A DNA stretch of 64,000 bases from Candidatus Poribacteria bacterium (GTDB lineage: Bacteria; Poribacteria; WGA-4E; PCPOR2b), in NCBI GenBank assembly GCA_965116925.1, contig OZ220744.1:2400001-2464000 (forward strand). Direction: 5' to 3'. Each line of letters starts with the position of its first letter. Within the stretch, counting starts at the first letter, position 1. Positions 35,811 through 54,172 of this stretch are shown one piece after another. The notes under the pieces were generated by a model. That model saw only the letters and a program-made list of their open reading frames with translations. It did no database searches and was not told the origin of the DNA. Made by a program: the position numbers and the translations under genes.

Positions 35811-37265
35811 ATGACACATACAATTCTTATTGCTGACGACGACGATAGCATCCGTTTTGTGTTGGAGAAAGCCCTTCAGAAGGAGGGGTATCGTACATTC
35901 TCCGCACGAAATGGGAAAGAAACGGTGGATCTCCTCCGCTCAGAAGCGATCGACACGATTTTTCTCGATATCTTTATGCCCGATGTCAACGGGCTAGATC
36001 TGATTGAAGAGCTGCAGGGTATTAACGGGACCGCATCGATTATTGTCATCACCGCCCACGGCACAACGCAAACGGCGATTGAAGCTGCAAAGCGACACGC
36101 TTATGACTATGTGACCAAGCCTTTTGACCTCCAAGAGATCATACCTTTGGTATCCCGTGCGGTATATGCTGCGGATCAAACAAAAGTGGCGATAGCAGAA
36201 GATTCGCCACCAGAAGATAGTGTGGTGCCACAAAATGGGGAGGAGGTGGGCACTCAGATTGTTGGCGAGAGCGATGCGATGCACGCGATCTACCTGACGA
36301 TCGGGCGGGCGGCGATCAGCGACGAAACCGTTCTAATTATGGGAGAGAGTGGCACCGGTAAAGAGTCAATTGCCAAGGCGATCCACCAAAATAGTAAGAG
36401 AGCGGAAGAGGAGTTTGTGGTGGTGGATTGCAGCGCGATTCCCTCGGACTTGATCGAAAGTGCGCTCTTTGGACATGTTAAAGGGGCGTACACAGGAGCC
36501 GACACCGCACGTGAAGGCAAATTTGAACAGGCGGACCGGGGAACAATTTTTCTGGATGAGGTTGGCGAATTACCGATAGAGGTGCAGATGAAGTTGTTGC
36601 GTGTTCTCCAAGAGCGGGAGGTCGAGCCTATTGGATCAAATGAGATTCGCAAGGTAGATGTGCGGGTGGTTGCCGCGACGAATCGACGCCTTGATTTGGC
36701 AATTCAGGAGGGTACGTTTCGGGAAGATCTGTTTTATCGGCTCAATGTAGTGCCAATCTTTTTGCCTCCGTTGCGTGAGCGGAAAGAGGATATTCCCGAT
36801 CTGGTGGACTTTTTTATTTCCCGCTTTGCTCAGGATTACGATCAGCCCAAAGGGACAATTTCGCCGGAGGCGTTCAAGCTGCTGATGGTTTATGATTGGC
36901 CCGGAAATGTCCGCGAACTTGAAAACAGCTTGAAGCGCGCGCTCGTGATGTGTGCCGGCCAGGTCCTCCTCCCGGAACATTTCCCGGAGCTTTCTGGCAG
37001 CGCAGTTCCCTCCGTTACGAAGGTGCCGACAGGGTTTGAGAGTCGCCTTGCTTCGCTTATGTCAGAGCGCGTGGATGAACTTATCGAATCCGGTGCCTCC
37101 TCGGGATCACTTCATGCAGAGATTCGTGTTGCCGTTGAGAAGCCGCTTTTTGAGTCTATTCTCCGGCGGACCAGCTGGAATCGTAGGAAGGCGGCTGAGA
37201 TTCTTGGAATTAATCGGAATACACTCCATTCTAAGATGGAGGAGTATGGGATTCAAAAGCGTTAG
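35811..37265 (+). CDS. sigma-54-dependent response regulator (NtrC-like: REC-AAA-HTH)
   Basis: IADDD, LDIFMP, GESGTGKE, GAYTGA, FLDEVGE, FREDLFYRLNV, WPGNVREL, LGINRNTL. Confidence 0.95.
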   Translation: MTHTILIADDDDSIRFVLEKALQKEGYRTFSARNGKETVDLLRSEAIDTIFLDIFMPDVNGLDLIEELQGINGTASIIVITAHGTTQTAIEAAKRHAYDYVTKPFDLQEIIPLVSRAVYAADQTKVAIAEDSPPEDSVVPQNGEEVGTQIVGESDAMHAIYLTIGRAAISDETVLIMGESGTGKESIAKAIHQNSKRAEEEFVVVDCSAIPSDLIESALFGHVKGAYTGADTAREGKFEQADRGTIFLDEVGELPIEVQMKLLRVLQEREVEPIGSNEIRKVDVRVVAATNRRLDLAIQEGTFREDLFYRLNVVPIFLPPLRERKEDIPDLVDFFISRFAQDYDQPKGTISPEAFKLLMVYDWPGNVRELENSLKRALVMCAGQVLLPEHFPELSGSAVPSVTKVPTGFESRLASLMSERVDELIESGASSGSLHAEIRVAVEKPLFESILRRTSWNRRKAAEILGINRNTLHSKMEEYGIQKR

Positions 37266-37279
37266 GTGAGCGTGCGTCT

Positions 37280-37564
37280 ATGGATATTGGAAAGGTCATC
37301 GGGACCATCGTCGCAACTCGAAAAGATCCGAGCTTGGTTGGCTATCGTCTGCTGGTTGTACAACCCCTTGATGCGGCGGGGGAATCGGCTGGCGATCCGG
37401 TCACCGCTATTGATATACAGGGTGCAGCCGGGTATGGTGAACTGGTCTATTTCGTCACCGGTGGAGACGCCGCATTTGTGTCAGCGGAACGCGCAATGCC
37501 TGTTGATGTTGCTGTAGTAGGAATTGTTGATTCAATCACCGTAACTGAAGAAGCGGAGGGGTGA
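37280..37564 (+). CDS. EutN/CcmL family bacterial microcompartment vertex (BMC-P) protein
   Basis: MxIGKVIGTIVATRK...LLVVQP...AID..GAA..GELV...PVDVAVVGIVD. Confidence 0.9.
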   Translation: MDIGKVIGTIVATRKDPSLVGYRLLVVQPLDAAGESAGDPVTAIDIQGAAGYGELVYFVTGGDAAFVSAERAMPVDVAVVGIVDSITVTEEAEG

Positions 37565-37842
37565 TGTACATCGCAAAGGTTATTGGTAAAGTGGTTTCGG
37601 TCATTAAACATCCTGCCTATGACAATCGAACCCTTCTGCTTGTTCAACCGTTGAGTCTGAAATCGCAGTTGGTACGAACACCGACGATTGCTGTTGACTA
37701 TGTTGGTGCGGGAGAGAACGATATCGTGCTTGTTGGGGCGGGGCCGGGCGTTGCCCAAGAGGTCTTTGAACTTGAAACTGCCCCCATAAGGGAGTTGGTT
37801 ATGGGAATCATTGATCGGTTTGATGTGTCCGGTGAGGCGTGA
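37564..37842 (+). CDS. Second EutN/CcmL family BMC vertex protein
   Basis: AKVIGKVVSVIKH...LLLVQP...AVDYVGAGENDIVLV...VMGIID; TGATG coupling to the first. Confidence 0.88.
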   Translation: MYIAKVIGKVVSVIKHPAYDNRTLLLVQPLSLKSQLVRTPTIAVDYVGAGENDIVLVGAGPGVAQEVFELETAPIRELVMGIIDRFDVSGEA

Positions 37843-39424: not shown

Positions 39425-40105
39425 TTAGCGTTTGATTGCAACTGATACCCCATCACGGAGCGGAATGATTGTTGTGAACACATCGGGGGAATTGTAAAGC
39501 AGCCGTGTCAACTCTTTAACCCCGACTGTTGTATTGTGCACCCACTGTTCCTCTTCATCAAGTTCTTGCATGTCAGCATCGGTATCGTATGTAACAACAC
39601 GCCCCAGCCATAGCATGTTGTCCGTGATAAACAACCCACCACTCCTGAGCCGTGGAATCGCCTTGCGAAACGCTTCGGGATATCCGTCCTTATCGATATC
39701 GTTGTAGATGATGTCAAATTCCCCTTCGGTTTCGTCGATGATTTCGAGCGCGTTCCCGACGCGATAATCGATCCGATCTGCGACTCCGCCTCGCGCAAGA
39801 TAACCCGCCGCACGATCAGCGTTTTCCTGCGAACCGTCGGTGCAGATGATGCCCGCTTCCGGCTGTCGCAGTGCTTTTGCCATCCAATACGCTGAATAGC
39901 CGAAACCGGATCCCATCTCGAAGATCCGCGTTGGGTTCGTCAGCAGCACCAATTGGTGTAACACGCGCCCAACGAGAGGACCTACGATTGGAAAACGGTT
40001 CTCCCGCGCGTGCGCCTCCATCTCCGTCAGTACCTCGTCGCGTTCAGGAATAACCTCGAGTAGGTATTCGTTAATTGACGGATGCAGCACATCTAAACGT
40101 TCCAT
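39425..40105 (-). CDS. Class I SAM-dependent O-methyltransferase
   Basis: FEMGSGFGYS, DIDKDGY, GGLFITDNML, PLRDGV. Confidence 0.9.
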   Translation of the reverse strand: MERLDVLHPSINEYLLEVIPERDEVLTEMEAHARENRFPIVGPLVGRVLHQLVLLTNPTRIFEMGSGFGYSAYWMAKALRQPEAGIICTDGSQENADRAAGYLARGGVADRIDYRVGNALEIIDETEGEFDIIYNDIDKDGYPEAFRKAIPRLRSGGLFITDNMLWLGRVVTYDTDADMQELDEEEQWVHNTTVGVKELTRLLYNSPDVFTTIIPLRDGVSVAIKR

Positions 40106-40372
40106 AAATCACTCCTATTCTTTCTGTGAGAAAAATGAAAGTAATGAGTAATGCGTGAAATCTGCTCTTTACCTATGACGCACTACTTGTTACCTAGTTT
40201 ATGCTGTTCGATTTAAGCTGCTAACAACCTATGCCCTATTTTTTATTTGATGGTGAATCTGTGTATAATCGCCTATTTCAAACGCTTTAGGGTAAAAAAA
40301 TGTTGGGAGTTTTGCTAATTTTTTTGGAGATGGATGTTTTTTTTAGAATCCATCAATAAAAATCATTTCGTT

Positions 40373-40412
40373 TTGACTTTTTTGATTTCAATAGCGTAAA
40401 ATTCTATTGAAA
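40373..40412 (+). promoter_or_regulatory. sigma-70 promoter with overlapping inverted repeat (candidate operator)
   Basis: TTGACT-18 bp-TAAAAT; TTTCAATAG-N9-CTATTGAAA brackets the -10 box. Confidence 0.55.
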
Positions 40413-40476
40413 ACGTGGCGGATCATTCGAGCAGAACAGTGAACGGTTTCAGACAACCATCATAAAGGATCTGAAA

Positions 40477-41301
40477 ATGGGACAAGGACAGTCGAATCTG
40501 TGGGCAAAATCCTATATCAACGATGGATATTTAATGCTTCCAGATCTCATTACACCCGAAGAGTGTAACGACTTGAAAGCAGAAATGCTGAAGATTTTTC
40601 GAGGGGATTATCCGTGTGAGGCGATCCCACCGATGCCGGAAACAGCAAGCGAGACAGAAGTATTGGATAGGATTATGTGTGTCGGCGAACCGCATGTCTT
40701 TAGCCCTTTGGTTCGGCGTTACATTGAACATCCAAAAATCTGTGAAATACTCCGAGGGATTGTTGGGGCACACATCCCATTTTGGGCAGGCGGAGTGAAG
40801 TGTATGCAGTCAATGATGTTGAGTAAGGTTCCTGGGCATAACGGCAACCCTTGGCACCAGGACGAACATCCGATTCCGACACGCGACAGATCGCTGGTCG
40901 GTGTGTGGATTGCATTGGATGATACCACAATTGAGAACGGCTGCCTTTGGATTCTGCCGAATAGCCATCGTTCGGGTGTAATTTATGATCGCGTGCCGCA
41001 CAACAAACGGGATGAATTCGACAGTTGTCAAGAAGCTGTTGGTTTTGATGATACGGACGAGATTCCGATCGAGATGTCGGCTGGCAGCGTCCTCTTTTTC
41101 AACGGTTACCTCTTGCACCGTTCCAAAAAGAATCGAAGCGATACATTTCGGCGTATCCTGGTGAGCCACTATTGTTCAACAGCATCATGGCTGGGCTGGA
41201 AGGGGCAGCGAAATTACCGCGGTATTGTCACTGTTGCTGGTGAAGATCCGTACATTGACGAAGGGCATGTCACCCCAAACGTCTGGGCACGATGGGAGTA
41301 G
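40477..41301 (+). CDS. PhyH-family dioxygenase
   Basis: WHQDE, WIALDDTTIENGCLWILP, LLHRS. Confidence 0.9.
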   Translation: MGQGQSNLWAKSYINDGYLMLPDLITPEECNDLKAEMLKIFRGDYPCEAIPPMPETASETEVLDRIMCVGEPHVFSPLVRRYIEHPKICEILRGIVGAHIPFWAGGVKCMQSMMLSKVPGHNGNPWHQDEHPIPTRDRSLVGVWIALDDTTIENGCLWILPNSHRSGVIYDRVPHNKRDEFDSCQEAVGFDDTDEIPIEMSAGSVLFFNGYLLHRSKKNRSDTFRRILVSHYCSTASWLGWKGQRNYRGIVTVAGEDPYIDEGHVTPNVWARWE

Positions 41302-41383
41302 GAACTCTGTTGTGCCACAGAAGCAGATGGCGGGGCAAGTCGCTTGGGATCCCGATCTTATCGAGGATGTCCCGTCTACAACT

Positions 41384-42346
41384 CTAACGGTGAGTAGACT
41401 GTAAACCTGTTTGCTTTAAGATTCCCCAGAGCGTTGTTCGCTTGTGTGTGTTTGGCGAAACGGATAGCCCCAACGGCACCCATTCAGGGGAAAATTCTAC
41501 TCCCGGATCTTGTGTCAGTTGTTGGATCTCCCCATTCGCCATACGGATTAGATGGAGGTTTTTGTTATTGCCTTGAGTTGACACATAGGCGATCCATTGT
41601 CCATCGGGCGACTCGGCAGGTTCTTCGCAGGGTTGTGGGGCGTTTACCAACTTCCGGACATTTCCCCCGTTGACATCTATGGCAAACAGGGTAGGCATCT
41701 CTACATTGTCGAGCATATCGCTAGAAAAGTAAATCTCTTTGCCCTCAGCTGCCCAAGTGGGGTTCATCGCGGAGACCTGTGTGAGGGCACGCTGTTTTTT
41801 GCCATTTGCGTTCATCAGATGGATGGCACCGAAACCGTCCAGTGTGGTGCGGAACGCGATCCACTGCCCGTCTGGCGACCACGCCGGCGTTGAATTGTGT
41901 CCACCCTTGTTTGTGAGTTGTTGTGCTTTCTTGCCACTTGGGTTCATTATGTAGATATCAGTGTCTGCTGCATGCTCTCTATGTTGGTTAGATGCGAACG
42001 CAATCCAGCGTCCATCCGGTGACCAGGCGGGATCTACGTCTGTTGCGCGATTGTTTGTTAGCCGTCGGGATTCCTTGTTTTTCATCTCCATCACATAAAT
42101 CTCTGGATTGCCATCTCTGTGTGAAACATAAGCGAACGCGCTGCCATCAGGTGCCCACGTAGCGGAAGAGTCCTCTGCCGGGTGGTTGGTCAAGTTGATG
42201 GGATTCTTGCGATTGGTATCCATTATGTAGATGTCAAGATTTCCGTTCAGATCGGCGGTGAAGGAAATCGTTCTATTGCCCCAAGCGTTTATCGTCGGCA
42301 GACTGCACCCTAACAGTAACACTGTCCAAACTAATTTCTGTTTCAT
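41384..42346 (-). CDS. Secreted TolB-like PD40-repeat beta-propeller protein
   Basis: Signal peptide; repeated PAWSPDGxWIAF, RDGNPEIYVM; tail SVSP...TTLWGILK. Confidence 0.88.
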   Translation of the reverse strand: MKQKLVWTVLLLGCSLPTINAWGNRTISFTADLNGNLDIYIMDTNRKNPINLTNHPAEDSSATWAPDGSAFAYVSHRDGNPEIYVMEMKNKESRRLTNNRATDVDPAWSPDGRWIAFASNQHREHAADTDIYIMNPSGKKAQQLTNKGGHNSTPAWSPDGQWIAFRTTLDGFGAIHLMNANGKKQRALTQVSAMNPTWAAEGKEIYFSSDMLDNVEMPTLFAIDVNGGNVRKLVNAPQPCEEPAESPDGQWIAYVSTQGNNKNLHLIRMANGEIQQLTQDPGVEFSPEWVPLGLSVSPNTHKRTTLWGILKQTGLQSTHR

Positions 42347-42463
42347 TGATGGATCTTTCCTGTCCTCTTGCACTTTTTGGTCACTTGAGATGTACTGCAC
42401 GCATTTCAGCGCAGGGAAACCAGATGCCCCGCCTACAGTTAGCTGCGTAAGTCCTATGCTATG

Positions 42464-44482
42464 TTAAAACGTGACCGAAATGCCCAATGTCGGCAGAATT
42501 GGCAGCAGCGGTTCTTCATTGATCTCGCAATCGAGCAGAATATCCGTTTCCTCATCGCGCGTCTCACTGAACGCATATTGGTCGATGTTAGAACGATTGT
42601 AGAGATTTAAGATTTGGAAATACCATGTAAGTTCCCACCGGCTGTATGGATTCCGTTTCGTAAACCGAAAATCGAGACTGTGATAAGATGGTAGCCGCTC
42701 TGAATGCGTCTCCCCAAATTGTCGGTCACACGCGAGGTCACCTCCCGGCTGGGAAACCAGCGTATGCGTCAAAGGCGTTCTGGGTTCGCCGGTATGGAAA
42801 CGCCAAGTCAGGTAGAGATGCCAGCCCCGTGAAAGTTGATGACTGCTACTGAGGGCGACAGAGTGTCGTCGATCGGACTGCCGAAAAAATGTCTCACCAC
42901 CTGCATTTTCTTCTGCAACGGCGTACGCATAGCCGACTCCCCATGTTAACCGATCTGAAACCGTATGCGTTACGAAAGCATCTACCCCTTTTGCCTCCCC
43001 GGATTCCGGAGGCACAAAAATCTGGGTCTGTCGTCCGAACTCCCTGAGCCGTCCTGAAAGGTTGTCCAATGTTTTGTAGTATGCCTCCAAACGGAACAAG
43101 AAATTAGCATTTGGATGGTATTCACCGCCGAGAATGTAATGAATCGCCTGTTCGGCACGTCCGACGGTTTGAACGTTGTCTTCCACAGGAATATTCATCA
43201 TAGAGATGGGTTGGTGATAGATCCCCCATGCTCCGCGCAATATCAGTTTCTCTGTTGGGCGCACTGCGAGTGCAATCCGAGGTCCAATCTCATAGTTTTG
43301 GATGCCGGCAGCGCGATAGTCCTGAAACAGGTATCGCCCTCCCACATTAAGCGCGAGTTTTGGATGCAGCTGCCACTCGTCTTGGAGGAACATCTTAATT
43401 TCACTGCCGCTGTCTTCAAAGTCTGCGAGGACTCGTGCGTATTGGTCTATACCGGGCTGCCGTTCTCGGACATTGTAATCGTACTGCGCTCCCATCCAAC
43501 GCCATTCTATACCGCTGCGAAACAGATGTTTATCCAAAAAGCCGGCTGTGAATTCCGTTTTGGTGCCGAAAAAATGGAACGAACGGAGGTCAGAATTTGC
43601 CACTCCGGTCTGACGGTCATGCGCTGCGGTCCCCCCAAAAACGAACACATCAGACCAGTTCGCCGTGCCGAAGTGATGCCTCCACCGCGTCCAAACGGTT
43701 AAATTATCATAGCGCGAATCTAAGTTATTGTCGGGATCCCCTTGCCGAATCCGATTCTTATCCCATCCATAAAGTCCGTTGAGTGTGAGTGTATCCTTCT
43801 GTGTCGGTGCGTACGTGAGTTTACCGTAGACATCCGCGTATTGTGGTTTGTAGTCCTCGTCGAAATCAATCATTGCGAGGATTAGGTCAACGTAACCCCG
43901 GCGTACTGACACGCGCCATGACCCTTTTTCTGATAGGGGTCCCTCCGCCATCGCAGTTGTATTTATAAGGTCAAGCCCGAAATTAGCAGAAACTTTCTCA
44001 ATGTCCTCCTCTTTTGTTGTGATGTCAAATACACCGGCCATTTTATCCCCATACTCTGCCGGGAAGCCGCCCATCAACAGTTCGACGCGCTGGATTAAAT
44101 CGAGACCAACGAGCGAGACAGCACCGCCAAAGTCTTGTAAGTGATACGGATTGAAGAGTTCCATCCCGTCTAATCGCACCAAAACGTCGTCCTTTTCACC
44201 GCCGCGTACGCTGAATCGCGCGCTGTAATCGCTTGCAACGACCCCTGGAAAAATATGTGCAGACCGCATCGCATCGTTACCAATCAACGGAAACTGCTCG
44301 ATTCGTTGCTTTGAGAGCGATAATTTTGAGGGTGTCCCATCATCAATTGCGAACCGGCCGGGGGTCACCACAATTTCGTCGAGTTCAACGGGTTTTGTGT
44401 CATCTTGTGCTGAAACGTCCAGGCAACTTCCAACTCCAAAAAGTAGAAGATGTAGACAGATTGTGTGGATGGATTTGACCAT
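42464..44482 (-). CDS. TonB-dependent receptor
   Basis: Signal peptide, LDEIVVT TonB box, SVRGG...LDG plug, terminal Phe; start 44482 or 44497. Confidence 0.9.
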   Translation of the reverse strand: MVKSIHTICLHLLLFGVGSCLDVSAQDDTKPVELDEIVVTPGRFAIDDGTPSKLSLSKQRIEQFPLIGNDAMRSAHIFPGVVASDYSARFSVRGGEKDDVLVRLDGMELFNPYHLQDFGGAVSLVGLDLIQRVELLMGGFPAEYGDKMAGVFDITTKEEDIEKVSANFGLDLINTTAMAEGPLSEKGSWRVSVRRGYVDLILAMIDFDEDYKPQYADVYGKLTYAPTQKDTLTLNGLYGWDKNRIRQGDPDNNLDSRYDNLTVWTRWRHHFGTANWSDVFVFGGTAAHDRQTGVANSDLRSFHFFGTKTEFTAGFLDKHLFRSGIEWRWMGAQYDYNVRERQPGIDQYARVLADFEDSGSEIKMFLQDEWQLHPKLALNVGGRYLFQDYRAAGIQNYEIGPRIALAVRPTEKLILRGAWGIYHQPISMMNIPVEDNVQTVGRAEQAIHYILGGEYHPNANFLFRLEAYYKTLDNLSGRLREFGRQTQIFVPPESGEAKGVDAFVTHTVSDRLTWGVGYAYAVAEENAGGETFFRQSDRRHSVALSSSHQLSRGWHLYLTWRFHTGEPRTPLTHTLVSQPGGDLACDRQFGETHSERLPSYHSLDFRFTKRNPYSRWELTWYFQILNLYNRSNIDQYAFSETRDEETDILLDCEINEEPLLPILPTLGISVTF

Positions 44483-44575
44483 GAATTTGATCCTCATAAT
44501 GTTTAAGTGCTTCTTTAATTATAACACATTGTAGGCAAACAACCAACGATAGTTGAGAAAATGTACAGAGCCATT

Positions 44576-44605
44576 TATAGTGAATTATATAAATAGGTAG
44601 ACATT
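44576..44605. repeat. Isolated left end of MITE family B
   Basis: TATAGTGAATTATATAAATAGGTAGACATT. Confidence 0.5.
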
Positions 44606-44727
44606 GAAAAGTAGTAGACACACGCCGCCCCGATAGATTGGGATTCAAAGCAATATACTGTAGCTCTGCGAACAAAGTTTCTGACCTCGCTCGTTCACAG
44701 TATTAGGAGTTTGCAAATTGATTGATT

Positions 44728-46179
44728 TTATCGCACAACAATCATCCGGCGCGTCATCTGATAATCCCCTACCACTAGCGTGTAGAAATACACCCCGCTG
44801 CTGACCTCTTCCCCCATATCATTGCGGCCATCCCAATATGCTGCTTGTTTTCGTGACATATAATTGCCGGCGGGCTTGGCACCTAGATTCAAGGTCCTCA
44901 CCAAATCCCCAACGACATCATAAATGTGAATTTTTACATGGGTAGCCTCTGCTAGTTGATAGGGTATCCACGTTTCGGGGTTGAAAGGGTTGGGATAGTT
45001 TGGCAGCAATTTTGTTTCCGTGACCAATGGCTGCATTTGGGATAACCACGCTTTGAGCAGGTCGTGGGCGAGGCGTGCCCCACGCGAGTGGGCTATCTGT
45101 AATTCTAAAGCTGCAAGTGCTTGGAATTGACGCTTGACACTTGATGGGTGATAATTGGCAGTTGGGTTTGAATCGTCAACAAGGGGCGCGGGTGCTGCAG
45201 CGTTTTCGCTTAAATTCACGCTGATAAGTATCAAATCGGACACATCCACTTTCCCGTCGCCATTGACATCTCCGGCGAGATGGGTGCCAACTTGTCCGAA
45301 TTGAAGGGCAGCCTGTATCAGATCTAGAATATTCACGACTCCATCCCGATTAACGTCCGGGGGTAGGAACGGATCTGCTGGGGGAATCGGAGGCTTGCCA
45401 TCTGTTTCATTATTTGAGTTGTTTTTGGCTCCCTCATTAATCCAATCAATAATGAGTTGCACCTGAGCTACCGGTAAAGGTGGACCACCCGGGGGCATTT
45501 CGCCCTCAACAATTACTTCAACCAGTTCGCTCCTTCGCGCATTGCCTGCAATAACAATAGGGCCCTCATAGCCTCCGGCAATCACGGCATCATACGTACG
45601 GAGATCTATACGGTACGGTCCGCCGGCGACATGACAACCTGCAAAGGCACATCGGTTCGTAAGGATAGGTAAAATATCGTCCTGAAAAGAGGGACTGGGT
45701 CTACCGGCATTTGTAGGATCATCAAATAACACATTACCATAATGGTAATCGTCGTCATCATAGTCATCGTCGTAGTCATCATCGTCGTAGTCATCGTCAT
45801 CATCGTCATCATCGTCGTCATCATCGCCGTCATAGTCTTGTGCACTCTGGCTATACGTGTTAGGTCCCGTCTTGTAGGCCGTTGGGCGAATTAGTGCACC
45901 ATTACTATAACCACTTAGACTAGAGTTGATCGCCCTGTTTTCACCGAAGTTATGCTGCTCCAATTCCTCCTTTTCAAGATTTGCTGCGTCGCCGGTTTTC
46001 TTTGGATTTTTTTCGTCAGAGGTATTCAAGCCGACACCGTAGGTCGAGGAACTATGGAGTTCACCCACCTCATTTGTATCCAAACGATTAGAGCCTTCTT
46101 GGTGTTTAATCGTACAGCCTATCACTATAAAAAGCAGACATGTTGTAATACTGATATGTTTTTTTAATCTCGTATACAT
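44728..46179 (-). CDS. Exported protein: Asp-rich tract, planctomycete-type cytochrome c domain (CX4CH), dockerin-like and FlgD-like C-terminal domains
   Basis: Leader ending VIGC; poly-D/Y tract; FQDDILPILTNRCAFAGCH...GEMPP...LIIDWINEGA; DVNRDGVVNILDL; NYPNPFNPETWIPY...TRRMIVVR. Confidence 0.85.
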   Translation of the reverse strand: MYTRLKKHISITTCLLFIVIGCTIKHQEGSNRLDTNEVGELHSSSTYGVGLNTSDEKNPKKTGDAANLEKEELEQHNFGENRAINSSLSGYSNGALIRPTAYKTGPNTYSQSAQDYDGDDDDDDDDDDDDYDDDDYDDDYDDDDYHYGNVLFDDPTNAGRPSPSFQDDILPILTNRCAFAGCHVAGGPYRIDLRTYDAVIAGGYEGPIVIAGNARRSELVEVIVEGEMPPGGPPLPVAQVQLIIDWINEGAKNNSNNETDGKPPIPPADPFLPPDVNRDGVVNILDLIQAALQFGQVGTHLAGDVNGDGKVDVSDLILISVNLSENAAAPAPLVDDSNPTANYHPSSVKRQFQALAALELQIAHSRGARLAHDLLKAWLSQMQPLVTETKLLPNYPNPFNPETWIPYQLAEATHVKIHIYDVVGDLVRTLNLGAKPAGNYMSRKQAAYWDGRNDMGEEVSSGVYFYTLVVGDYQMTRRMIVVR

Positions 46180-46206
46180 TAATCAGCTCCCTCCTGTTGA
46201 TTTCTT

Positions 46207-46298
46207 CGTTCATGTTAAGATTTAGTGCAACCGAGACCGAGTTTTGCCGAAAAAACTCGGTTTATCTTGGTGCTCTGCACTTTCTTTTTACATAAGCC
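46207..46298. mobile_element. MITE family A, 92 bp, with 8-bp target-site duplication
   Basis: CGTTCATGTTAAGA...TTACATAAGCC; GATTTCTT on both flanks (46199-46206, 46299-46306). Confidence 0.8.
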
Positions 46299-46356
46299 GA
46301 TTTCTTAATATTTCACTTGCAAGGATCGTGTAGAAGTTAAGCACTTTTGATAAGGT

Positions 46357-46872
46357 CTAGTTATTCTTGGCCCCCTGATTGATCCAATCAATGATAAGTT
46401 GGATCTGGGCTGCCGGCAAAGGTGGCCCGTCAGGCGGCATTTCCCCCTCAACAATTTGTTCGACCAATTCACTCTCTCTTGCATTGCCTGCAATGACGGT
46501 ATCGTCATCATCTCCTCCCGCAATCATGGTATCATACGTACGGAGATCTATACCGCCCGGTCCTCCAGCGACATGACAGCCTGCAAAAGCACATTGATTG
46601 GTCAGGATGGGCAGGATATCGGCGTTAAACGAGGGACTTGGTCTACCAGCATCTACGGGATTATCAAATACGATGCCGCGAGCATTGACAGCGCGCCTAT
46701 CGTCGTCATCATCGTCATAGTCATCATCGTCGTGGTCGTCATCGTTGTCATGTTCATCATAGTCATCATCGTAGTCATCGTCGTCGTATTCTTCACCACA
46801 ACCAATCAACCCAATCGCAATCAGTAATGTAATGAAAAACAAGATTCTAGCAATGTGTAACGGTTTCATCAT
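46357..46872 (-). CDS. Lipoprotein with Asp/His/Tyr-rich tract and planctomycete-type cytochrome c domain (CX4CH)
   Basis: Lipobox LIGC; acidic tract; FNADILPILTNQCAFAGCH...GEMPP...LIIDWINQGAKNN. Confidence 0.85.
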   Translation of the reverse strand: MMKPLHIARILFFITLLIAIGLIGCGEEYDDDDYDDDYDEHDNDDDHDDDDYDDDDDDRRAVNARGIVFDNPVDAGRPSPSFNADILPILTNQCAFAGCHVAGGPGGIDLRTYDTMIAGGDDDDTVIAGNARESELVEQIVEGEMPPDGPPLPAAQIQLIIDWINQGAKNN

Positions 46873-47039
46873 TTGATCCTCTTTTGAGAATTTGTTTGAC
46901 AGTTGTTTTGAATTAGATTATCTTAATTAGCAGCAGAAAAGGCGCGAACGCAAACACCCCTCTACGAGAAATCGGAGATGGGCGTGTCGAGTTGATTGTC
47001 ATCTAGGAATTTGCTAACAATTGGCGTTGGGAGCGTTTC

Positions 47040-47288
47040 CTATGTGACCTTCGTTGCCTTTTCTGCAATTATACCGAACCACTTTGGATTCGATTTTCTC
47101 AATAAAATCGGAATTTTACCTATTCCGTTGAAGATGAGTCGTGTTAGATTGCCCCCATCCGTCATCGTGCAGATTTCTGCATTTCCAGCCCGTTTGAAAT
47201 AAAACGTAATTTTAGCGTGGAGGGGGCGATTAAGAGTCGGATAGGTGTGTACGAAATTCATCGGTGTGATTGTCTCAATTCTCGACAA
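47040..47288 (-). pseudogene. Possible decayed PD40/TolB-like gene fragment
   Basis: KITFYFKRAGNAEICTMTDGGNLTRL resembles the PD40 repeat seen in the 41384-42346 gene; no signal peptide, single repeat. Confidence 0.4.
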
Positions 47289-49607
47289 TTAAAATCGGTT
47301 ATCAAGGCTGACAATCACGTTGAATCCCGGTGCATTGATGCCGGAGCCGTGCTCACGATAGCGCTTATCAAGGAGGTTTTCAAGGGCGAGGGTGAGTCGA
47401 TTGTATTGGGTCACCTGAACACCGCCGCGCAGGTTAAACGTTACCCAACCCGGTGAGCCTTCACCAATGGCTGCACCGTTGGCATCAAACTCAACTTCAC
47501 CTGTGTCGCGGGTGGTTCCTGGAATCCGCGGATCTCGAATATCGCTCCGATTTAAGCGTCTCTGCTCGGTTGCACCACGAACGAAGCATTCCGCCCAAAA
47601 TCGTTGAGCAGGTGGCTCCCAGCGTAGACCGATCATGCCGTTGAGAGGTGGTTCGCGACGGATTCGTTCTTCCCACGGCTTGTGGGGATCCGGTGCTGCG
47701 CCGTTGATGGTCAGTACTTTTCCACGCGTGAACATCGCATTACCGTAGAGCGATAAACCACTTTGAATCGGAATCGGAACCGTTCCAGCAAACTCAACAC
47801 CTTGGATTTGCACTTCATCCACGTTGTCAAATACATAGACATCAACGCCCGGATTGTTTTTCTGGATTTCCTGAATCAGGCTTGGAAGCGGTTGGTCTCC
47901 GTAAGCATCTTCGACGGGAACGCGGGTGACCAGATCGCTAACGCGACCATGGAAAAGGATCAGTGAACCGATAAACCATGGATAACGCGCCTTAAAACCA
48001 CCTTCCGCTGTCCATCCTCGCTCCGATTTGAGGTCTGGCGAAGGGGAATCGATACCTTCATTGGTGACTTCGACAGCGGTTGTATCGTTCAAAGAAGGCG
48101 CGCGGAACGATGTGGCGAAATTACTGACAACATTCAGCCCGTCGGTGACGCTTGCGACTAGACCTGCGCTGTAGGTCAATGCGTTACCAGATTCATTAAA
48201 ATTATCGAACTGATCGGAACGCACCGAGAGATCTGCGTTTGTGTTGTAAAGTGTATATCGTCCACCGAGCGTCAGTTCAAGGCGTTCGTGCAGTTCAATT
48301 TCGTCCTGAACGTAAAGGTTTGCGTCCCAGAATTGCGATCCGTCGATGAACCTACCCTTTGTGTCGTCCACCTTTTCAGTCCCGGTCTTGATATCGGTTT
48401 TGATTGTTTGGCTTGAAACGGTATCGAAGTAGAATTCCCCGCCTGCGACGACACGCTGCTTTGGCATTGACGAATTGACCGCTTGTGCACTAAGCCCCAA
48501 TGTATTGACGGTATCGAACCGTTCACGGCGTTCCGTTGTATCGCGTAGGAGCTCGTTTCGTCCCTCTTTTTGCCGATGAAATGAAGTAGTGCATCGAATC
48601 TGGTCAATCGCCGCGGTTGCCGGTTTGGAGAGGTAGGTGGCGTAAAATAGGTCTCGGTCTTGTGGTTGAAAGAAAAACTCGTCAAACTCGCGCGGTGCAA
48701 TCTTGTCGTAACGCGGTGTTTGCGGTTGTCGCCAAAGTTGGTAGGCGAGGTTGACCCTGCTGGTGTCATTGAGTTTGTAAGCGAGTTTAGCGTCGCCATC
48801 ATAGGCATTCCAACCGAGTGGGCCTTCGGAATCAACCAGCCAACGTTCGGGGACATTTTTGGGGGGACCATCAGAGACTTGCACACCCGCTGGTTTGTCG
48901 GTGACAATCTCAAATTTTCGGTTCTTGTAGTGTAGGTCGTAGCCGCTGCCCGGATTGATATTACCAAACCATCGTGCCGAGGCACCGATCGAAAACCCAA
49001 GTTGCTTTTGGCTTCCGATTACCTCAAGGCGTCCGAGTCGCTCGGCACTCCCCGAAGCGAATCGAGTGAAGGCACGGGACTGGATGTTCCAATGGTCTGT
49101 TGCGTTATCAGGAATGGCGTCTTTGGTGAACATGCTGATAACCCCGCCCATAGCACCGCTGCCGTATAGCATCGAACCGGCACCGCGTAACACCTCAATC
49201 CGATCGAGACTATCCGGGCTAGTTGTTGCCAGATATTGATTGGGCCCGGAGCGGAAGGTGGAATTGTTGAGTCGGACACCATCAATCGCAAGGAAGGCTT
49301 GATAGCCGGTAAGTCCCCGCAGCAGCGGTGAACCTTGTCCGACCGTTGTTTGCTGTGCCCAGACTCCCTCTGTTTCGCGTAGGATTCGGGGTGTTGTTGG
49401 GGCATTCATACGCTCAATCTGCTCTCTGTCAATGACGGAGACTGCGTTCGGTGTTCGGAATGTGTCTTTTACGACGCGGGTGATGACAGTGACTTCCTCA
49501 AGTTCAACGATCGAGGACTCTGACCCGTCTTCTTGAGCATAAGCAAGGTTGATACTAATTAGGAAAAGACTCAAACATACCCACGGGTGTTTCGGCTTCC
49601 GTTTCAT
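47289..49607 (-). CDS. TonB-dependent receptor (hemoglobin/transferrin/lactoferrin receptor-like)
   Basis: LEEVTV TonB box, LLRG...IDGVRLNNSTFRSGPNQY, RIEVLRGAGSMLYGSGAMGGVI, FRAP, ENLLDKRY, terminal Phe; GAGGAGG RBS. Confidence 0.92.
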   Translation of the reverse strand: MKRKPKHPWVCLSLFLISINLAYAQEDGSESSIVELEEVTVITRVVKDTFRTPNAVSVIDREQIERMNAPTTPRILRETEGVWAQQTTVGQGSPLLRGLTGYQAFLAIDGVRLNNSTFRSGPNQYLATTSPDSLDRIEVLRGAGSMLYGSGAMGGVISMFTKDAIPDNATDHWNIQSRAFTRFASGSAERLGRLEVIGSQKQLGFSIGASARWFGNINPGSGYDLHYKNRKFEIVTDKPAGVQVSDGPPKNVPERWLVDSEGPLGWNAYDGDAKLAYKLNDTSRVNLAYQLWRQPQTPRYDKIAPREFDEFFFQPQDRDLFYATYLSKPATAAIDQIRCTTSFHRQKEGRNELLRDTTERRERFDTVNTLGLSAQAVNSSMPKQRVVAGGEFYFDTVSSQTIKTDIKTGTEKVDDTKGRFIDGSQFWDANLYVQDEIELHERLELTLGGRYTLYNTNADLSVRSDQFDNFNESGNALTYSAGLVASVTDGLNVVSNFATSFRAPSLNDTTAVEVTNEGIDSPSPDLKSERGWTAEGGFKARYPWFIGSLILFHGRVSDLVTRVPVEDAYGDQPLPSLIQEIQKNNPGVDVYVFDNVDEVQIQGVEFAGTVPIPIQSGLSLYGNAMFTRGKVLTINGAAPDPHKPWEERIRREPPLNGMIGLRWEPPAQRFWAECFVRGATEQRRLNRSDIRDPRIPGTTRDTGEVEFDANGAAIGEGSPGWVTFNLRGGVQVTQYNRLTLALENLLDKRYREHGSGINAPGFNVIVSLDNRF

Positions 49608-49675
49608 AAAATCCCTCCTCTTTTCAACATGGCTTTTGGATTATTGAATTTTTAAGACCGTGTGCTAGTTAAATG

Positions 49676-49690
49676 GCAATTTTTGTGCCA
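49676..49690 (-). promoter_or_regulatory. sigma-54 (-24/-12) promoter
   Basis: Minus strand TGGCAC-AAAAA-TTGC, exact consensus spacing, about 70 bp upstream of the receptor ATG. Confidence 0.8.
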
Positions 49691-49761
49691 AAGGAATTCG
49701 AGCCAGAGATTAAGTTTTTATGCGGGTTCCTTGTTGGTTTTGTCCGACGAGATACTGTCTA

Positions 49762-49800
49762 TTGTTCAATTTTTGAACAAGTCTGTTTTTCTTTTGGACA
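49762..49800. promoter_or_regulatory. Tandem candidate upstream activator sites
   Basis: TGT-N11-ACA at 49763-49779 (within palindrome TTGTTCAA-N3-TTGAACAA) and at 49784-49800, 21 bp apart. Confidence 0.6.
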
Positions 49801-49950
49801 GTTGCGTTTGCTATAGAAGCACGGGTTGATTTAAAGTATAATAGCAAGAGCGAGAAGTCGCTAATGCCTTCCGTGTGTTTTTGAGGAAATAAGGCGTAAT
49901 ATCCAACGCGTAAAAAAGATGGCTACGATGTATCGCGATGCCAAATTAGG

Positions 49951-49980
49951 TTGACATATTCCTCAACCTAGTGGCACAAT
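49951..49980 (+). promoter_or_regulatory. sigma-70 promoter for the large propeller gene
   Basis: TTGACA-18 bp-CACAAT with extended TG. Confidence 0.55.
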
Positions 49981-50047
49981 AACTACAAAATCACTCTTAG
50001 GCGAAAGAAAGGTTGTTGAAATAATGAAGCAAGCAGGTCCGCACAGG

Positions 50048-53000
50048 ATGAAAACCGCTGTATGTTCCCTATTGTTATTACCATTGGTTATGATGGTAGG
50101 GTGCACAACATTAGTCCCCGATGATCCTAATATTCCGCTGGAAGATTTCGGTTCGGGTTCTCGTGCTGAAAAGACGTGGCGGGTGGACCGGAAGCTCGTC
50201 AGTAACGAGGTCAACTGTATTGCTGCTGATGCACACAATGTGTGGTTTGCAACGCAAGCCGGTGTTTCGCGTTGGGATCGAGGCCAAGATCAATGGTTCC
50301 ACTACACAATGGAAGATGGACTGTCGAACGATGTGGTAAACGCTGTCGCAATTGATGGGCAGTGGGTTTGGTTCGCCACGGAGGAGGGGGTGAGTCGCTA
50401 CGACACGGAGACGCACACCTTTTCGACCTACCGTACCATTGATGGGTTGGCGAGCGATCGGGTGTCGTCCATTGCGGTGGACGGGAACTATGTTTGGTTT
50501 GGAACATCTAACGGGTTAAATCGTTACGACAAAACCATTGACAGTTGGGCGGTGCGTACCCGTAAGGATGGTCTGGTCAGCAAGGTGATTACAACGATTG
50601 CGGTTGAACCAGAGTATGTGTGGGTCGGCACGGATAAGGAGATAAATCCGGATCCCCACGGCTGGGAGGATGACCCTCGGTTCAGCAAAGGTGGGGTGAG
50701 CCGATACCATCGAGACACCGATTCTTGGAATAATTATAAAAAATCAGATGGCTTGATAGACAATGAGATCGCTACCATTGCGGTGGATGAGAATAGTGTT
50801 TGGTTTGGAACGCAGGACGAAGGCGTGAGTCAGTACAATCAGGTTGATCAGGCTTTCATCAAAACATTTACGAAGACCGACCTGCTCAAGAGCAATATGA
50901 TATCTTGTATCCGTGCGGATGGGTTTCAAGTATGGTTTGGTACTGCGAATGCCGGTGTGCATCGTTTCATCAAGCCGGTGAACACTTGGGTGCATTACAC
51001 CAAAACGGATGGACTGGCAAGTAATCATGTGAGTTGGATCGCGACACAAGGAAATGATGTTTGGTTTGCAAGCAAAGAGGATGGGGTGAGCCGCTTTGAT
51101 AAGGTAACCGGTGAGTGGACGCTCTATAAGCAGGCAGATTTTCTTGCGGATAACGATGTTCGGGATATAACACGCGATGCGGAGGGCAATCTTTGGCTGG
51201 CGACGGTATCGGGAATTTCGATTTACGATCCCCGAACGCGCAGTTGGGAAATCATCTCTAAAGAGGATGGTCTTCCGAGCCCGTATATTACGAGGATAGA
51301 TGTTGCGTCTCAATCGACTGAGTCGGGGCAAAGCGAAATAATCGAAATCATGAACGGTGGGATGACTGGTGCACAGGTCTGGATCGGTACAGATCGAGGA
51401 CTAGGCACACGCCCTTGCTCCGGCGGCGAATGGGCGTTTTATTCTCCTCTCCGATCCGAGACAGATGGGGAGGCTTTTGTGACGGCAGTCGATGCCGACG
51501 AAGATATGCTCTGGCTCGGTACAAGTTCAGGCCCCGCCATATATGACACAACTTCTCAAGAGTGGACACATCTTGAAACACCGGGTGCTAAGTCGAATGC
51601 GATTGTGTTATCTGTACTTGTCCAGGATGGAATGGTCTGGTTTGGTGGGGCGGCGGGTGTTTGGCGATATTCGATTGCGGATAAGAAGATGCATCATGCT
51701 GCTGAGGGGCTTCCTGACACCTACGTTAATGTGCTACTTTCCGCAGAAGGTATCCTTTGGGCGGGGACACGCCAAGGAGTTGCACGATATGATGTTGCTC
51801 AGGGGCATTGGGTGCCGCTATCGTTTAACGAACAGTTGCCTGTTTCCAATGTTACGGCACTCGATTTCCGAGATGGCATCCTCTGGATAGGCACACCGCA
51901 AGGTTTGGGCAATTATTCGATTGCTTCGGAGGCATGGGGTCTTATCTCGGATGTGCCGTACAGCATTCGGGACATCCTGTGTGATGTGGAAGAAACGCTT
52001 TGGTTAGCGACATCGGTCGGTCTTGTCGAATATCACCCTTCAGATGGAGGCAAAGTGCTGCATCAATCGCGTCCGGTACGGGAGCCGTTTCTTGAAACGA
52101 AGGTGTCAAATATCAAATTTGATGGGGATTACATCTGGTTCAACAACTGGGCTGCTTCACCGAACGGTGGGATTTTACGGTTTCATCGTCCCACGGGAGC
52201 ATGGCAGCGTTTTACGCGCTTGGATATTCTCCAGTCAACTCAGAAAAGGTCGATGACCACAGTGCGTTGGAGCTATGTGGATACAGATGCAGTCTGGTTC
52301 ACGACGGACTACGGCGTTCTACGGTACGACAAAATGGCGGATACGTGGCAACATTTTACGATAGAGGACGGTCTTTCTACGAACGATGCGGACAAGATTG
52401 CTGTGAGCGAACACAGCGTGTGGGTGATTCCGATGATCGGTGTCGAATTAAGCCATTATAGTAAAAAGACTGGAAAATGGAATGTGATTGCTCATGGAAA
52501 AGAGATGCAGATTGAGCGGTTGAACGCGTTAGCGGTTGATGGGGCGGAGGTCTGGTTCGGTTCGGGACGTGGGCTTCATCGTTACAATGAATTTACCGGT
52601 GAATGGCGTGATTTCACGCCGAGAGACGGACTAGCGGGTAGGGGTGCTGAGTGGATTACCGCGGATGAGGATTTCATCTGGGTAGCGCGTTCGGAGTGGG
52701 ATAGAGACAGTAATCGTCCGCTGTCACGATACAATAAAAAAACGAAAAAATGGGATACATTTTCAACGAGTGACGTGCTCGCTTCAGATACGATTAGACG
52801 AATTATTGCGACAAAGGACGACGTTTGGATACTCTACAGACCTTGGACAAAGAAGGGGGTCACCCGATACGATAGGCGTACCGGAGAGTGGACGACAATC
52901 AAGTCGGGGCAGGGCACGCTTGAGTTAGCTGTGGACGATGACTACCTCTGGTTAGCTGTGCCCAATAATGGACTCCGGCGATTTCACTTTGCATCTGGTA

Positions 53001-54172
53001 CTTGGACGGTATTCCGGGATCTGAAAGGAATGCTGCATAACCATGTAGATGAGTATGGGCTTGCGGTTGACGATCGATATGTATGGGTGGGCACGTTGCG
53101 CGGGCTTTCTCGCTATGACAAACAGAGGGAATCTTGGACCCCCTTTACCGCGATGCCAACCCTTTCTGGACGCACCATCCGGACGGTGGATACAGACGAG
53201 CGTTTTGTCTGGGTCGGTACTGACAACGGTTTGTCTCGTTACGATAAGGAATTGGGCACCTGGAAGCAATATCAACAGGAGGGTGGTTCCGAAGAGATTG
53301 CCACCCACGGTGGCCATTGGCACCGATGGCGTCCCAAAAGGAAAGATACACTGTCCGATAATTCGGTGAGTTCGATTGTGGTTGATGCCCAGTACGTCTG
53401 GGTCGGCACCCGAGATGGAGCGAACCGTTTTGATAAGCTCGCCCTACGCTGGGATCAGTACAAAACCGGGCATGGGTTGCCTGCTAATAATGTGACTTCT
53501 GTCAGTAACGATGGCAATAATATTTGGGTTGGCACAAACTCTGGGATTGGCAAGTATCCCCGAACCGCGGATGACCTCAACGCTTGGATTGCTTATACCT
53601 CCGGCACGGAGATTCAACCCGCCTCTGTCTCAAAAGAGTTTGCGGAGTCGTTGGTTACGGATGAGATCTGGTGTATCGCTAGCAGCAAGAAAAATGTTTG
53701 GGTCGGTACGCGACGGGGTGTGAGCAGATACGATATCGGTAAGGACACGTGGAAAACTATCACAACCGAAGATGGCTTGACGAGTGATGAAATCAGTTGT
53801 ATTGCTATTGATGGGGAGCGTGTTTGGTTCGGCACAGATCGGGGTGCGACTGTCTACAATGAGGAAACAGAGGCTTGGACTTCCTATACAACAGAAGATG
53901 GATTAGCTAGCAACAAGGTAACTTCGATTGATGTTGATGGTACAGAGGTGTGGATTGGGACGTATAATGCAGGAGTAAGCCGCTTCGATCCGTCAGTAAA
54001 TAGCTGGCTAACTTATACGCGAGAGGAGGGCTTGGCTCATAATGGGATTCTGTCTATCTCAGTAGGAAATACTTATGTGTGGTTCGGGACCTATCGTGGC
54101 TTGAGCCGTTTTGACAAACATACGGGCATCTGGACAACCTTCACAGAATCCTACGGACCTGAGGATCTTTGA
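50048..54172 (+). CDS. Large multi-beta-propeller (two-component regulator propeller-like repeat) lipoprotein, no signalling domain
   Basis: Lipobox MVGC; many repeats of DGL.S..V..IAVDG..VWFGT..G.SRYD. Confidence 0.85.
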   Translation: MKTAVCSLLLLPLVMMVGCTTLVPDDPNIPLEDFGSGSRAEKTWRVDRKLVSNEVNCIAADAHNVWFATQAGVSRWDRGQDQWFHYTMEDGLSNDVVNAVAIDGQWVWFATEEGVSRYDTETHTFSTYRTIDGLASDRVSSIAVDGNYVWFGTSNGLNRYDKTIDSWAVRTRKDGLVSKVITTIAVEPEYVWVGTDKEINPDPHGWEDDPRFSKGGVSRYHRDTDSWNNYKKSDGLIDNEIATIAVDENSVWFGTQDEGVSQYNQVDQAFIKTFTKTDLLKSNMISCIRADGFQVWFGTANAGVHRFIKPVNTWVHYTKTDGLASNHVSWIATQGNDVWFASKEDGVSRFDKVTGEWTLYKQADFLADNDVRDITRDAEGNLWLATVSGISIYDPRTRSWEIISKEDGLPSPYITRIDVASQSTESGQSEIIEIMNGGMTGAQVWIGTDRGLGTRPCSGGEWAFYSPLRSETDGEAFVTAVDADEDMLWLGTSSGPAIYDTTSQEWTHLETPGAKSNAIVLSVLVQDGMVWFGGAAGVWRYSIADKKMHHAAEGLPDTYVNVLLSAEGILWAGTRQGVARYDVAQGHWVPLSFNEQLPVSNVTALDFRDGILWIGTPQGLGNYSIASEAWGLISDVPYSIRDILCDVEETLWLATSVGLVEYHPSDGGKVLHQSRPVREPFLETKVSNIKFDGDYIWFNNWAASPNGGILRFHRPTGAWQRFTRLDILQSTQKRSMTTVRWSYVDTDAVWFTTDYGVLRYDKMADTWQHFTIEDGLSTNDADKIAVSEHSVWVIPMIGVELSHYSKKTGKWNVIAHGKEMQIERLNALAVDGAEVWFGSGRGLHRYNEFTGEWRDFTPRDGLAGRGAEWITADEDFIWVARSEWDRDSNRPLSRYNKKTKKWDTFSTSDVLASDTIRRIIATKDDVWILYRPWTKKGVTRYDRRTGEWTTIKSGQGTLELAVDDDYLWLAVPNNGLRRFHFASGTWTVFRDLKGMLHNHVDEYGLAVDDRYVWVGTLRGLSRYDKQRESWTPFTAMPTLSGRTIRTVDTDERFVWVGTDNGLSRYDKELGTWKQYQQEGGSEEIATHGGHWHRWRPKRKDTLSDNSVSSIVVDAQYVWVGTRDGANRFDKLALRWDQYKTGHGLPANNVTSVSNDGNNIWVGTNSGIGKYPRTADDLNAWIAYTSGTEIQPASVSKEFAESLVTDEIWCIASSKKNVWVGTRRGVSRYDIGKDTWKTITTEDGLTSDEISCIAIDGERVWFGTDRGATVYNEETEAWTSYTTEDGLASNKVTSIDVDGTEVWIGTYNAGVSRFDPSVNSWLTYTREEGLAHNGILSISVGNTYVWFGTYRGLSRFDKHTGIWTTFTESYGPEDL

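Follow-up and report, generated by a model that had tools for sequence, protein, structure and literature searches.

Do two TonB-dependent receptors, two acidic cytochromes and a secreted propeller, encoded side by side, make up a dedicated machine for metal uptake? The question is raised by a locus in a 64,000-nucleotide (nt) stretch of a Candidatus Poribacteria genome (the window, in whose positions all features of the locus are given), where an initial annotation had read five co-oriented genes for exported proteins as a redox-assisted metal capture module under sigma-54 control. Poribacteria are abundant, uncultured sponge symbionts whose nutrient uptake has been inferred almost wholly from gene names. 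We recovered the five genes, namely receptor 1, the cytochromes CytL and CytD, receptor 2 and a PD40 propeller, as minus-strand open reading frames (ORFs) in the expected place, and searched for them in the source genome (G000, one 6.47-Mb contig) and 60 relatives (labelled G001 and upwards), 61 genomes in all, in which 100 stretches, none longer than 20 kb, were mapped; "the genus" below is the 20-genome genus of G000. Instead of a fixed machine for taking up metal, the five genes are a shifting snapshot of a surface programme whose co-regulation is likely. Within a predicted sigma-54 surface regulon with a variable slot, the cytochromes would act as accessory electron carriers, a reading to which we give somewhat more belief than doubt.

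The promoter before receptor 1 and the genes that share it

The first gene of the locus, receptor 1 (47289-49607, minus strand), encodes a 772-amino-acid (aa) TonB-dependent receptor with Pfam plug and barrel domains, a core protein found in single copy in 59 of the 61 genomes (split across two contigs in G040). The exact sigma-54 -24/-12 box TGGCAC-N5-TTGC that had been reported ahead of the locus is present at 49676-49690 (minus strand), 69 nt 5' of the receptor 1 ATG. By number alone, boxes in the window do not exceed chance (6 matches with at most one mismatch, 4.3 expected), but 49 of 52 loci conserve the box 5' of receptor 1; in the remaining three it precedes the gene immediately upstream of receptor 1. 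Two palindromes on the same strand had escaped the initial annotation: TGTTCA-N5-TGAACA at 49763-49779, 89 nt upstream of the box and a predicted sigma-54 activator site, and a weaker distal one at 49784-49800, 21 nt from the first, a predicted enhancer-protein site seen in most upstream regions of the genus. Allowing two mismatches, the palindrome TGTYCA-N5-TGRACA occurs in 48 of the 49 box-bearing receptor 1 upstream regions, 25 times exactly at -89 and frequently joined by another copy 21 nt farther upstream. Each of the four families sampled keeps box and palindrome, about 89 nt apart, ahead of receptor 1.

Elsewhere in the source genome, 41 intergenic boxes have a spacer of 5, compared with 0-10 at spacers of 3, 4, 6 or 7, and intergenic boxes precede clpB, groES, a glnA-like gene and many exported-protein genes (names read from sequence). 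The genome carries two genes with a sigma-54 DNA-binding domain (rpoN-type; G000:C1:123832 and 5246670) and gives 27 BLAST hits to an enhancer-binding regulator. Judged by these features, receptor 1 is preceded by a conserved sigma-54-dependent promoter with a predicted upstream activator site. The layout is that of glnAp2/NtrC-type promoters, with a -24/-12 box and two palindromes 21 nt apart some 90-110 nt upstream; it differs in its site, TGTYCA-N5-TGRACA, and the box of the genome's own glnA-like gene is not among the four that bear a palindrome. Candidates for the activator are an NtrC-like gene in the window, found in 60 of the 61 genomes, and a regulator that stands beside receptor 2 in other families, found in 59.

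The NtrC-like gene lies at 33040-37842 with a GAF histidine kinase, a PD-(D/E)XK/DUF3782 gene and two small EutN/CcmL-like genes. A second exact sigma-54 box in the window (28221-28235, minus strand) lies upstream of LRR/Big/dockerin surface-protein genes (25526-27721 and 22701-24386).

The strict composite of palindrome plus box was detected in 52 of the 61 genomes and never in reversed controls. Only 4 of the 87 boxes in G000 have a palindrome 55-130 nt upstream, three of them in tandem: those of receptor 1, of a secreted alpha/alpha-barrel protein (G000:C1:979029-980120) and of a trihaem protein (G000:C1:4163657-4164553). The barrel gene is present in all 61 genomes, at about 60-94% identity in most, and has the promoter pair in 32 of 32 loci and in both first-gene copies of G037 and G043 (34 of 34); the second copies in these two genomes lie inside a gene run and are without it. 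Its product matched squalene-hopene cyclase weakly by profile (E 7e-4), had no PDB match as a single sequence, and appears in the Atlas as a prenyltransferase/squalene-oxidase-repeat protein. The trihaem gene (59 of 61 genomes) encodes an unnamed, predicted membrane protein with four predicted transmembrane helices, near-invariant His and three CxxCH motifs, for which the top Atlas score of 0.76 (Cytochrom_CIII, Ferric_reduct 35%) is a lead only. Within the genus this gene carries the promoter pair in 17 of 18 congeners and in G000 (18 of 19).

These genes also meet one another in distant relatives. Extra copies of the trihaem gene adjoin receptor 1 and DUF2231 in G042, G045, G048 and G057. 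In the deep-branching G031 and G049 a single run holds the promoter, the barrel gene, receptor 1, a CARDB-barrel, an EB_dh haem domain and the trihaem gene; in G037 and G043, also deep-branching, a run holds the promoter, two barrel genes, receptor 2 and a rhodanese gene. DUF2231 occurs in 12 of the 61 genomes, in nine of them in or near the slot behind receptor 1, and G021 and G022 have it behind the same promoter with another receptor.

Cytochrome genes take part in this pattern. In G041 the promoter stands ahead of a cytochrome gene that belongs to the other main clade and is followed directly by receptor 1; among 20 further promoter sites examined, two lead to a cytochrome as the second gene and most others to WD40/PD40 arrays and small lipoproteins, one lying near a multihaem gene. 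A promoter pair within 1200 nt upstream was found for 11 of 74 cytochrome arrays (0 of 2000 in the reversed control), 10 of them without receptor 1. The sigma-54 control proposed earlier is supported in that the promoter is conserved and, in another family, also precedes cytochrome genes that lie apart from the receptor. Newly seen is that the one palindrome-plus-box promoter stands before the barrel, trihaem and DUF2231 genes, WD40/PD40 arrays, other receptors and some cytochrome arrays. Because kin genomes are not independent, the promoter counts show conservation and are not to be read as statistics. The pattern points to a single predicted sigma-54 surface regulon with a core of receptor 1 and the barrel protein, joined within the genus by the trihaem protein, and with a hypervariable slot.

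The variable slot behind receptor 1

Four minus-strand genes follow receptor 1. CytL (46357-46872) is a 171-aa lipoprotein with lipobox Cys25, an Asp/Tyr/His tract (aa 27-58) and one PSCyt1/FoxE-like domain with the motif CAFAGCH (C94-X4-C99-H100) and Met145. CytD (44728-46179; 483 aa) has a lipobox-like N-terminus (Cys22), an Asp/Tyr tract (aa 115-147), a PSCyt1/FoxE-like domain (CAFAGCH at 177-183) 78% identical to that of CytL, a dockerin (275-320) and a FlgD-Ig/CTD-like tail. The Asp tracts of CytL and CytD rank first and second among the most acidic 25-residue stretches of 5513 genome ORFs. Receptor 2 (42464-44497; 677 aa, Pfam plug and barrel) is a TonB-dependent receptor of a subfamily other than that of receptor 1, and the last gene (41384-42400, likely start Met19) encodes a secreted PD40/TolB-like propeller (Pfam PD40) with about 98 paralogues. 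From receptor 1 to PD40 the gaps measure 416, 177, 230 and 63 nt (the last 117 nt if PD40 begins at Met19), close to the 120-420 bp estimated before. Three of the four are occupied by genome-wide repeats not seen at that time: a REP-like palindromic repeat at 46200-46290 (about 312 BLAST hits in the genome), another palindromic repeat at 44570-44700 (32 hits) and a short repeat at 42410-42450 (52 hits). No Rfam family was found in 40000-51000, and scans of 41000-50300 for terminators (10, with 10.4 expected) and sigma-70 promoters (16, with 11.0 expected) stayed at chance level.

Across relatives the five genes do not travel together. Among the 19 assessable congeners (G016 was left out, its contig ending behind receptor 1), the full order with two haem-domain genes occurs in six: G000, G008, G009, G011, G017 and G019, the last across two contigs. 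A cytochrome gene stands behind receptor 1 in 11 of the 19 and is missing there in eight; receptors 1 and 2 are linked in 17. In all four genomes of genus g5, the space from one receptor to the other is taken up by WD40-tail proteins. In three other families receptor 2 is absent from the stretch in all 27 mapped receptor 1 loci, only two of which (G042 and G041) have a cytochrome gene, and the full order occurs in none. The initial annotation had named loss of synteny as a refuting result; as a test of a fixed five-gene module, synteny largely fails, and the order is not conserved in the manner of a single five-gene operon.

The individual parts tell the same story. Receptor 2, found in 58 of the 61 genomes, has no sigma-54 box of its own in any of 40 loci (at most one mismatch) and outside this family is mostly followed by a rhodanese gene. 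Genome BLAST hits number 76 for the dockerin/tail, 98 for PD40 and 6 for the haem domain, which makes three of the five gene types parts that have expanded in the lineage; the PD40 and dockerin/tail components, once taken as belonging to the module, are members of large families. The PD40 orthologue itself was found in 18 of the 20 genus genomes, compared with 1 of 41 others. We regard receptor 2 and PD40 as looser members of the programme. The tail of CytD exceeds the cut-off for FlgD_ig and scores 24.2 for Por_Secre_tail (cut-off 27), and relatives have a PorX-like protein above and a PorZ-like protein below the cut-off. Por-secretion-like tails were reported in 2014 on poribacterial WD40 (eukaryote-like repeat) proteins, in a study that found no Por structural genes (PMC3909097). 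A tail of the same kind ends CytD, where the cargo is a cytochrome domain plus an Asp tract.

What fills the position behind receptor 1 varies further: a YCF48-type propeller, an 800-aa protein, a second receptor with a CobN operon, or nothing. The 800-aa protein showed no detectable kinship with the barrel protein (probability 0.1). CytD orthologues retain the N-terminus and an acid tract of 22-152 residues, carry 0, 1 or 2 haem domains and have their other domains swapped. The N-terminal 103 aa of CytD were found in 12 of the 61 genomes, always within the receptor 1 locus, including that of G042 from another family. An acid lipoprotein lacking a haem domain is encoded at the receptor 1 locus in G045 and about 10 kb beyond receptor 1 in G057. 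On a quick-method receptor 1 tree of 52 rows the cytochrome label needs nine changes, and at least four; in the domain tree (FastTree, 94 columns) 86 of 168 forks are open, and with both trees in this state the order of cytochrome gains and losses is unsettled.

The lipoproteins downstream of receptor 1 in G057 (L223:12004-13011, 335 aa) and G045 (L086:9046-9849, 267 aa) consist almost wholly of Asp/Glu/Gly repeats. On the other side of receptor 1, and divergent from it, the window encodes a 1382-aa Reg_prop/PorZ-N-like propeller lipoprotein (50024-54172, plus strand), whose position is kept across the genus.

The stretch was also present in six RNA runs and two runs of unspecified kind. In four RNA runs of one study, which come from a strain about 98% alike, contigs cover each of the five genes; contig depth differs from gene to gene, without allowing the genes to be ranked. 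One contig (X2, record 11) spans the entire gap between receptor 1 and CytL into the cytochrome gene, the gap between receptor 2 and PD40 is bridged as well, and no contig listed bridges the gap between CytD and receptor 2. Contig cover has a hole in the divergent promoter gap. One RNA contig ends at 49654 and three end further in; contigs do not reveal transcript starts. In runs X1 and X2 a contig of the related strain joins 46699 to 45747, so that residues 1-58 of CytL run on in frame into residues 145-483 of CytD at the Asp tracts; parts 45782-46123 and 46466-46693 are uncovered in these runs because of this join. A similar joint, 45709 to 46766, was found in X5 from another study. Run X7 has difference-free pieces over parts of CytL and CytD and three gaps and may be the source sample.

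The CX4CH domain and the substrate of receptor 1

The cytochrome domain proved to be a real c-type family. CytL scores 34.2 bits for PSCyt1 (PF07635; cut-off 22) and CytD 21.3 in a protein scan and 24.6 in a genome scan. In 49 of 49 aligned domains the Cys, Ala, Cys and His, a distal Met-Pro and an Asp-Trp are invariant, and the motif, spaced as CX4CH and not as CxxCH, is present in 170 of 171 sampled domains. The domain profile matches both repeats of FoxE (PDB 5MAB; E 2.8e-13), the other matches being weak ones to cytochrome c6 types. A domain model (pLDDT 82) matched FoxE and the hydrazine synthase alpha chain in Foldseek, none at E <0.001; in direct comparison it aligned with FoxE over 100 residues at Z 10.5 and a root-mean-square deviation of 3.2, followed by PccH at Z 6.4. 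On profile and fold, the CX4CH domain is a PSCyt1 domain homologous to FoxE. The profile also matches 23,234 protein clusters at E <=0.001, and the likeness to FoxE therefore shows fold, not iron oxidation.

The two cytochromes likely bind haem, judging from these conserved residues and from a Ccm system in the genome, with CcmC, CcmF and a CcmE that has CxxxY. Desulfovibrio matures CX4CH. The CxxxY variant of CcmE is described for archaea and Desulfovibrio (PMC9084895), and CX4CH binds haem in hydrazine dehydrogenase (PMC6469936). The ccmE gene (G000:C1:5755840-5756286), with CxxxY in place of HxxxY, sits in a cluster of haem-synthesis and ccm genes. The genome encodes a second tandem pair of CX4CH lipoproteins (G000:C1:6193336-6194491), between Pup-proteasome genes, a Cu/Zn superoxide dismutase and PPDK; it is kept across the genus and is without the promoter pair.

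Several known systems resemble parts of the locus. FoxE of Rhodobacter ferrooxidans SW2, a dihaem Fe(II) oxidoreductase, shares the profile-matching repeats, the best structural match and His/Met ligation; it is a two-repeat CxxCH protein, whereas CytL and CytD are CX4CH lipoproteins with Asp tracts and one domain each (elsewhere two). A propeller gene neighbours the cytochrome gene in foxEYZ too (FoxY), and the description of foxEYZ consulted mentions neither TonB receptors, which are present here, nor sigma-54 control, which is predicted here (PMC10654088). FoxY is of the PQQ type and the propeller of the locus of the PD40 type; the window holds no two-repeat FoxE with two CxxCH motifs, and among the ORFs of the locus there is no gene for a FoxZ-like DMT transporter. 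PSCyt1, the planctomycete cytochrome c domain, is a modular and common one whose Pfam cut-off CytL exceeds; its described contexts are DUF1501/PSCyt2/PSD1/WD40 clusters (PMC3542564), whereas here it belongs to acid-tailed lipoproteins behind a TonB receptor. Among the full-text matches listed, excluding supplements and subscription papers, no paper on the locus or the regulon was found.

In Pseudomonas, FoxA-FoxB and FpvA-FpvG are reportedly systems of a TonB receptor plus periplasmic reduction. The feature in common with the present set is an outer-membrane receptor and a membrane haem protein that are predicted to share their regulation; here, by comparison, control by sigma-54 is predicted, the partners are c-type, the genes are dispersed and no ABC transporter is linked.

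The best fold match of receptor 1 is the haem receptor PhuR (E 1.4e-43, 19% identity), followed by Cir, ChuA, HasR and OprC. An orthologue 92% identical (G014) falls below both haem-receptor cut-offs, scoring 173.5 against 316.85 for TIGR01785 and 189.7 against 323.75 for TIGR01786. A 51-sequence alignment has no His or Tyr in the FRAP...SPDL loop, the place of the His or Tyr ligand in haem receptors (FRAP/NPNL loop). Many invariant residues of receptor 1 are Arg, Lys and Trp, and the protein would thus suit an anionic ligand. A search of plasmids gave three distant relatives of receptor 1; the one examined had uninformative neighbours.

The genome has a separate haem/iron cluster (G000:C1:5388507-5397867) with a bacterioferritin-like, a Rieske-like and a PepSY-TM-like protein, a TonB receptor, HmuY, a binding protein, a permease and an ATPase, several of these names being read from sequence. 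The genome has no Peripla_BP_2 protein other than this binding protein, and a search for the FeoB Gate domain found none; this cluster and the missing Gate domain weigh against receptor 1 as the main iron route, and a metal chelate stays possible. There are three Fur-family genes, and the best Fur-box match is 9-12 of 19 positions everywhere, the HmuY cluster included, when scored against an E. coli consensus. In G020 the slot behind receptor 1 (G020:C47:2949-10260) holds a second receptor, CobN, MotA/ExbB and DUF2149; these gene classes match hmuR, S, U and V of the Bacteroidota hmuYRSTUV haem uptake operon (PMC11681262). That system is absent from the window, the HmuY of this genome sits with another receptor, and CobN occurs in 1 of the 61 genomes. 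Metal, the substrate proposed at the outset, is a possibility; a metal or haem chelate is the single most likely substrate of receptor 1, at a probability we would put well short of even.

Weighing the explanations

If the cytochromes are accessory electron carriers of the regulon, its workings might be as follows. One enhancer-binding protein would bind the palindromes and switch the gene set on, and transcription starting at receptor 1 would continue into CytL and CytD. Ccm would attach haem to the CX4CH motif, with His/Met ligation, and electrons could pass from the membrane b-type/trihaem protein by way of the lipoproteins to a substrate that, once captured on the outer membrane, receptor 1 would import. 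The Asp tracts would act as flexible, negatively charged tethers and may bind cations as well. The slot would turn over as Asp tracts and intergenic repeats serve as sites of recombination, which would make the five-gene order a snapshot.

Several observations weigh against this account. In a sample enriched for receptor loci, 141 of 171 domains are separated from both receptors by more than 7 kb. The distant ones adjoin Pup-proteasome/SodC, cysteine synthase, or UDP-glucose dehydrogenase/sulfatase genes, and all the proteasome/SodC and cysteine-synthase contexts are without the promoter pair. The pair is missing within 1200 nt of 63 of the 74 cytochrome arrays, nine of these 63 lying behind receptor 1, and outside the genus it is missing before the trihaem gene in 21 of 21 loci. 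Slot lipoproteins of G001, G004, G013 and G045 retain the acid tract without a haem domain. Many members of the regulon are WD40/PD40 propellers with no redox role, and co-regulation may therefore mean only a general envelope response. Both activator candidates are core genes (59 and 60 of 61 genomes), and their distribution does not separate them. The RNA evidence consists of one study's contigs, carrying neither strand, start nor level, with library DNA not excluded, and leaves the gap between CytD and receptor 2 unbridged among the contigs listed.

A rival explanation is a passive slot, in which a recombination hotspot behind a strong promoter gathers exported paralogues and the cytochromes share regulation at most, with no functional tie to receptor 1 or the trihaem protein. 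The diverse contents in relatives, from WD40-tail arrays, the YCF48-type propeller and the 800-aa protein to a receptor with CobN or nothing at all, fit it well, as do the nine (at least four) changes on the receptor 1 tree, the genome-wide repeats in three gaps and the presence of the domain somewhere in 60 of the 61 genomes. It accounts poorly for the cytochrome arrays of another family that carry the same promoter on their own, for a CytD N-terminus restricted to the receptor 1 locus even in G042, and for the five kinds of haem-type genes that recur near receptor 1; we consider it rather unlikely. No more probable, in our judgement, is the bolder proposal of a phylum-wide redox scavenging regulon, in which the membrane b-type/trihaem protein would feed lipid-anchored or surface-exported, FoxE-like poly-Asp CX4CH cytochromes that mobilise a metal or haem chelate, the receptor would import it and the barrel enzyme would process the ligand, the tracts binding cations or mineral and being tuned in length by recombination.

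The dedicated five-gene module of the initial annotation, with acid tracts that concentrate cations and haems that change redox state beside two receptors, draws on the kinship of the domain with an Fe(II) oxidoreductase, its nearest solved relative, on the PhuR fold of receptor 1, on Asp/His tracts of up to about 150 residues and on the hmuR-S-U-V-like run in G020 (gene list in PMC11681262). Against it stand the limited spread of the full order (6 of 19 congeners, 0 of 27 loci in other families) and a profile so broad that likeness to FoxE says little about function. The FRAP loop of receptor 1 also lacks His and Tyr at the ligand positions, the only Peripla_BP_2 protein lies in the separate HmuY/ABC cluster of a genome in which no FeoB Gate domain was found, and the single CobN is encoded behind a second receptor; the module is improbable. 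A domain free of haem, whose cysteines would form a disulfide or metal site in structural, acidic surface lipoproteins, would explain the non-canonical spacing and the orthologues that dispense with the domain and retain the tract. It is very unlikely given the invariant Cys, Cys, His and Met-Pro (49 of 49) and a motif present in 170 of 171 domains, fold matches that are haem proteins, the CcmC/E/F genes with their CxxxY CcmE, and the haem bound by CX4CH in hydrazine dehydrogenase (PMC6469936).

For Poribacteria, the promoter signature ties a core receptor, a core secreted barrel protein, a membrane multihaem cytochrome and fast-changing haem lipoproteins into a defined gene set, which can be traced in existing metatranscriptomes and whose proteins can be produced one at a time. 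Should the redox link be true, the set would represent a route of uptake that uses the FoxE fold in organisms other than photoferrotrophs, and would offer a first way into the function of a cytochrome domain that is very common and has barely been studied. Should it be false, the locus would still be a clear example of a slot next to a promoter in which closely related strains exchange surface proteins.

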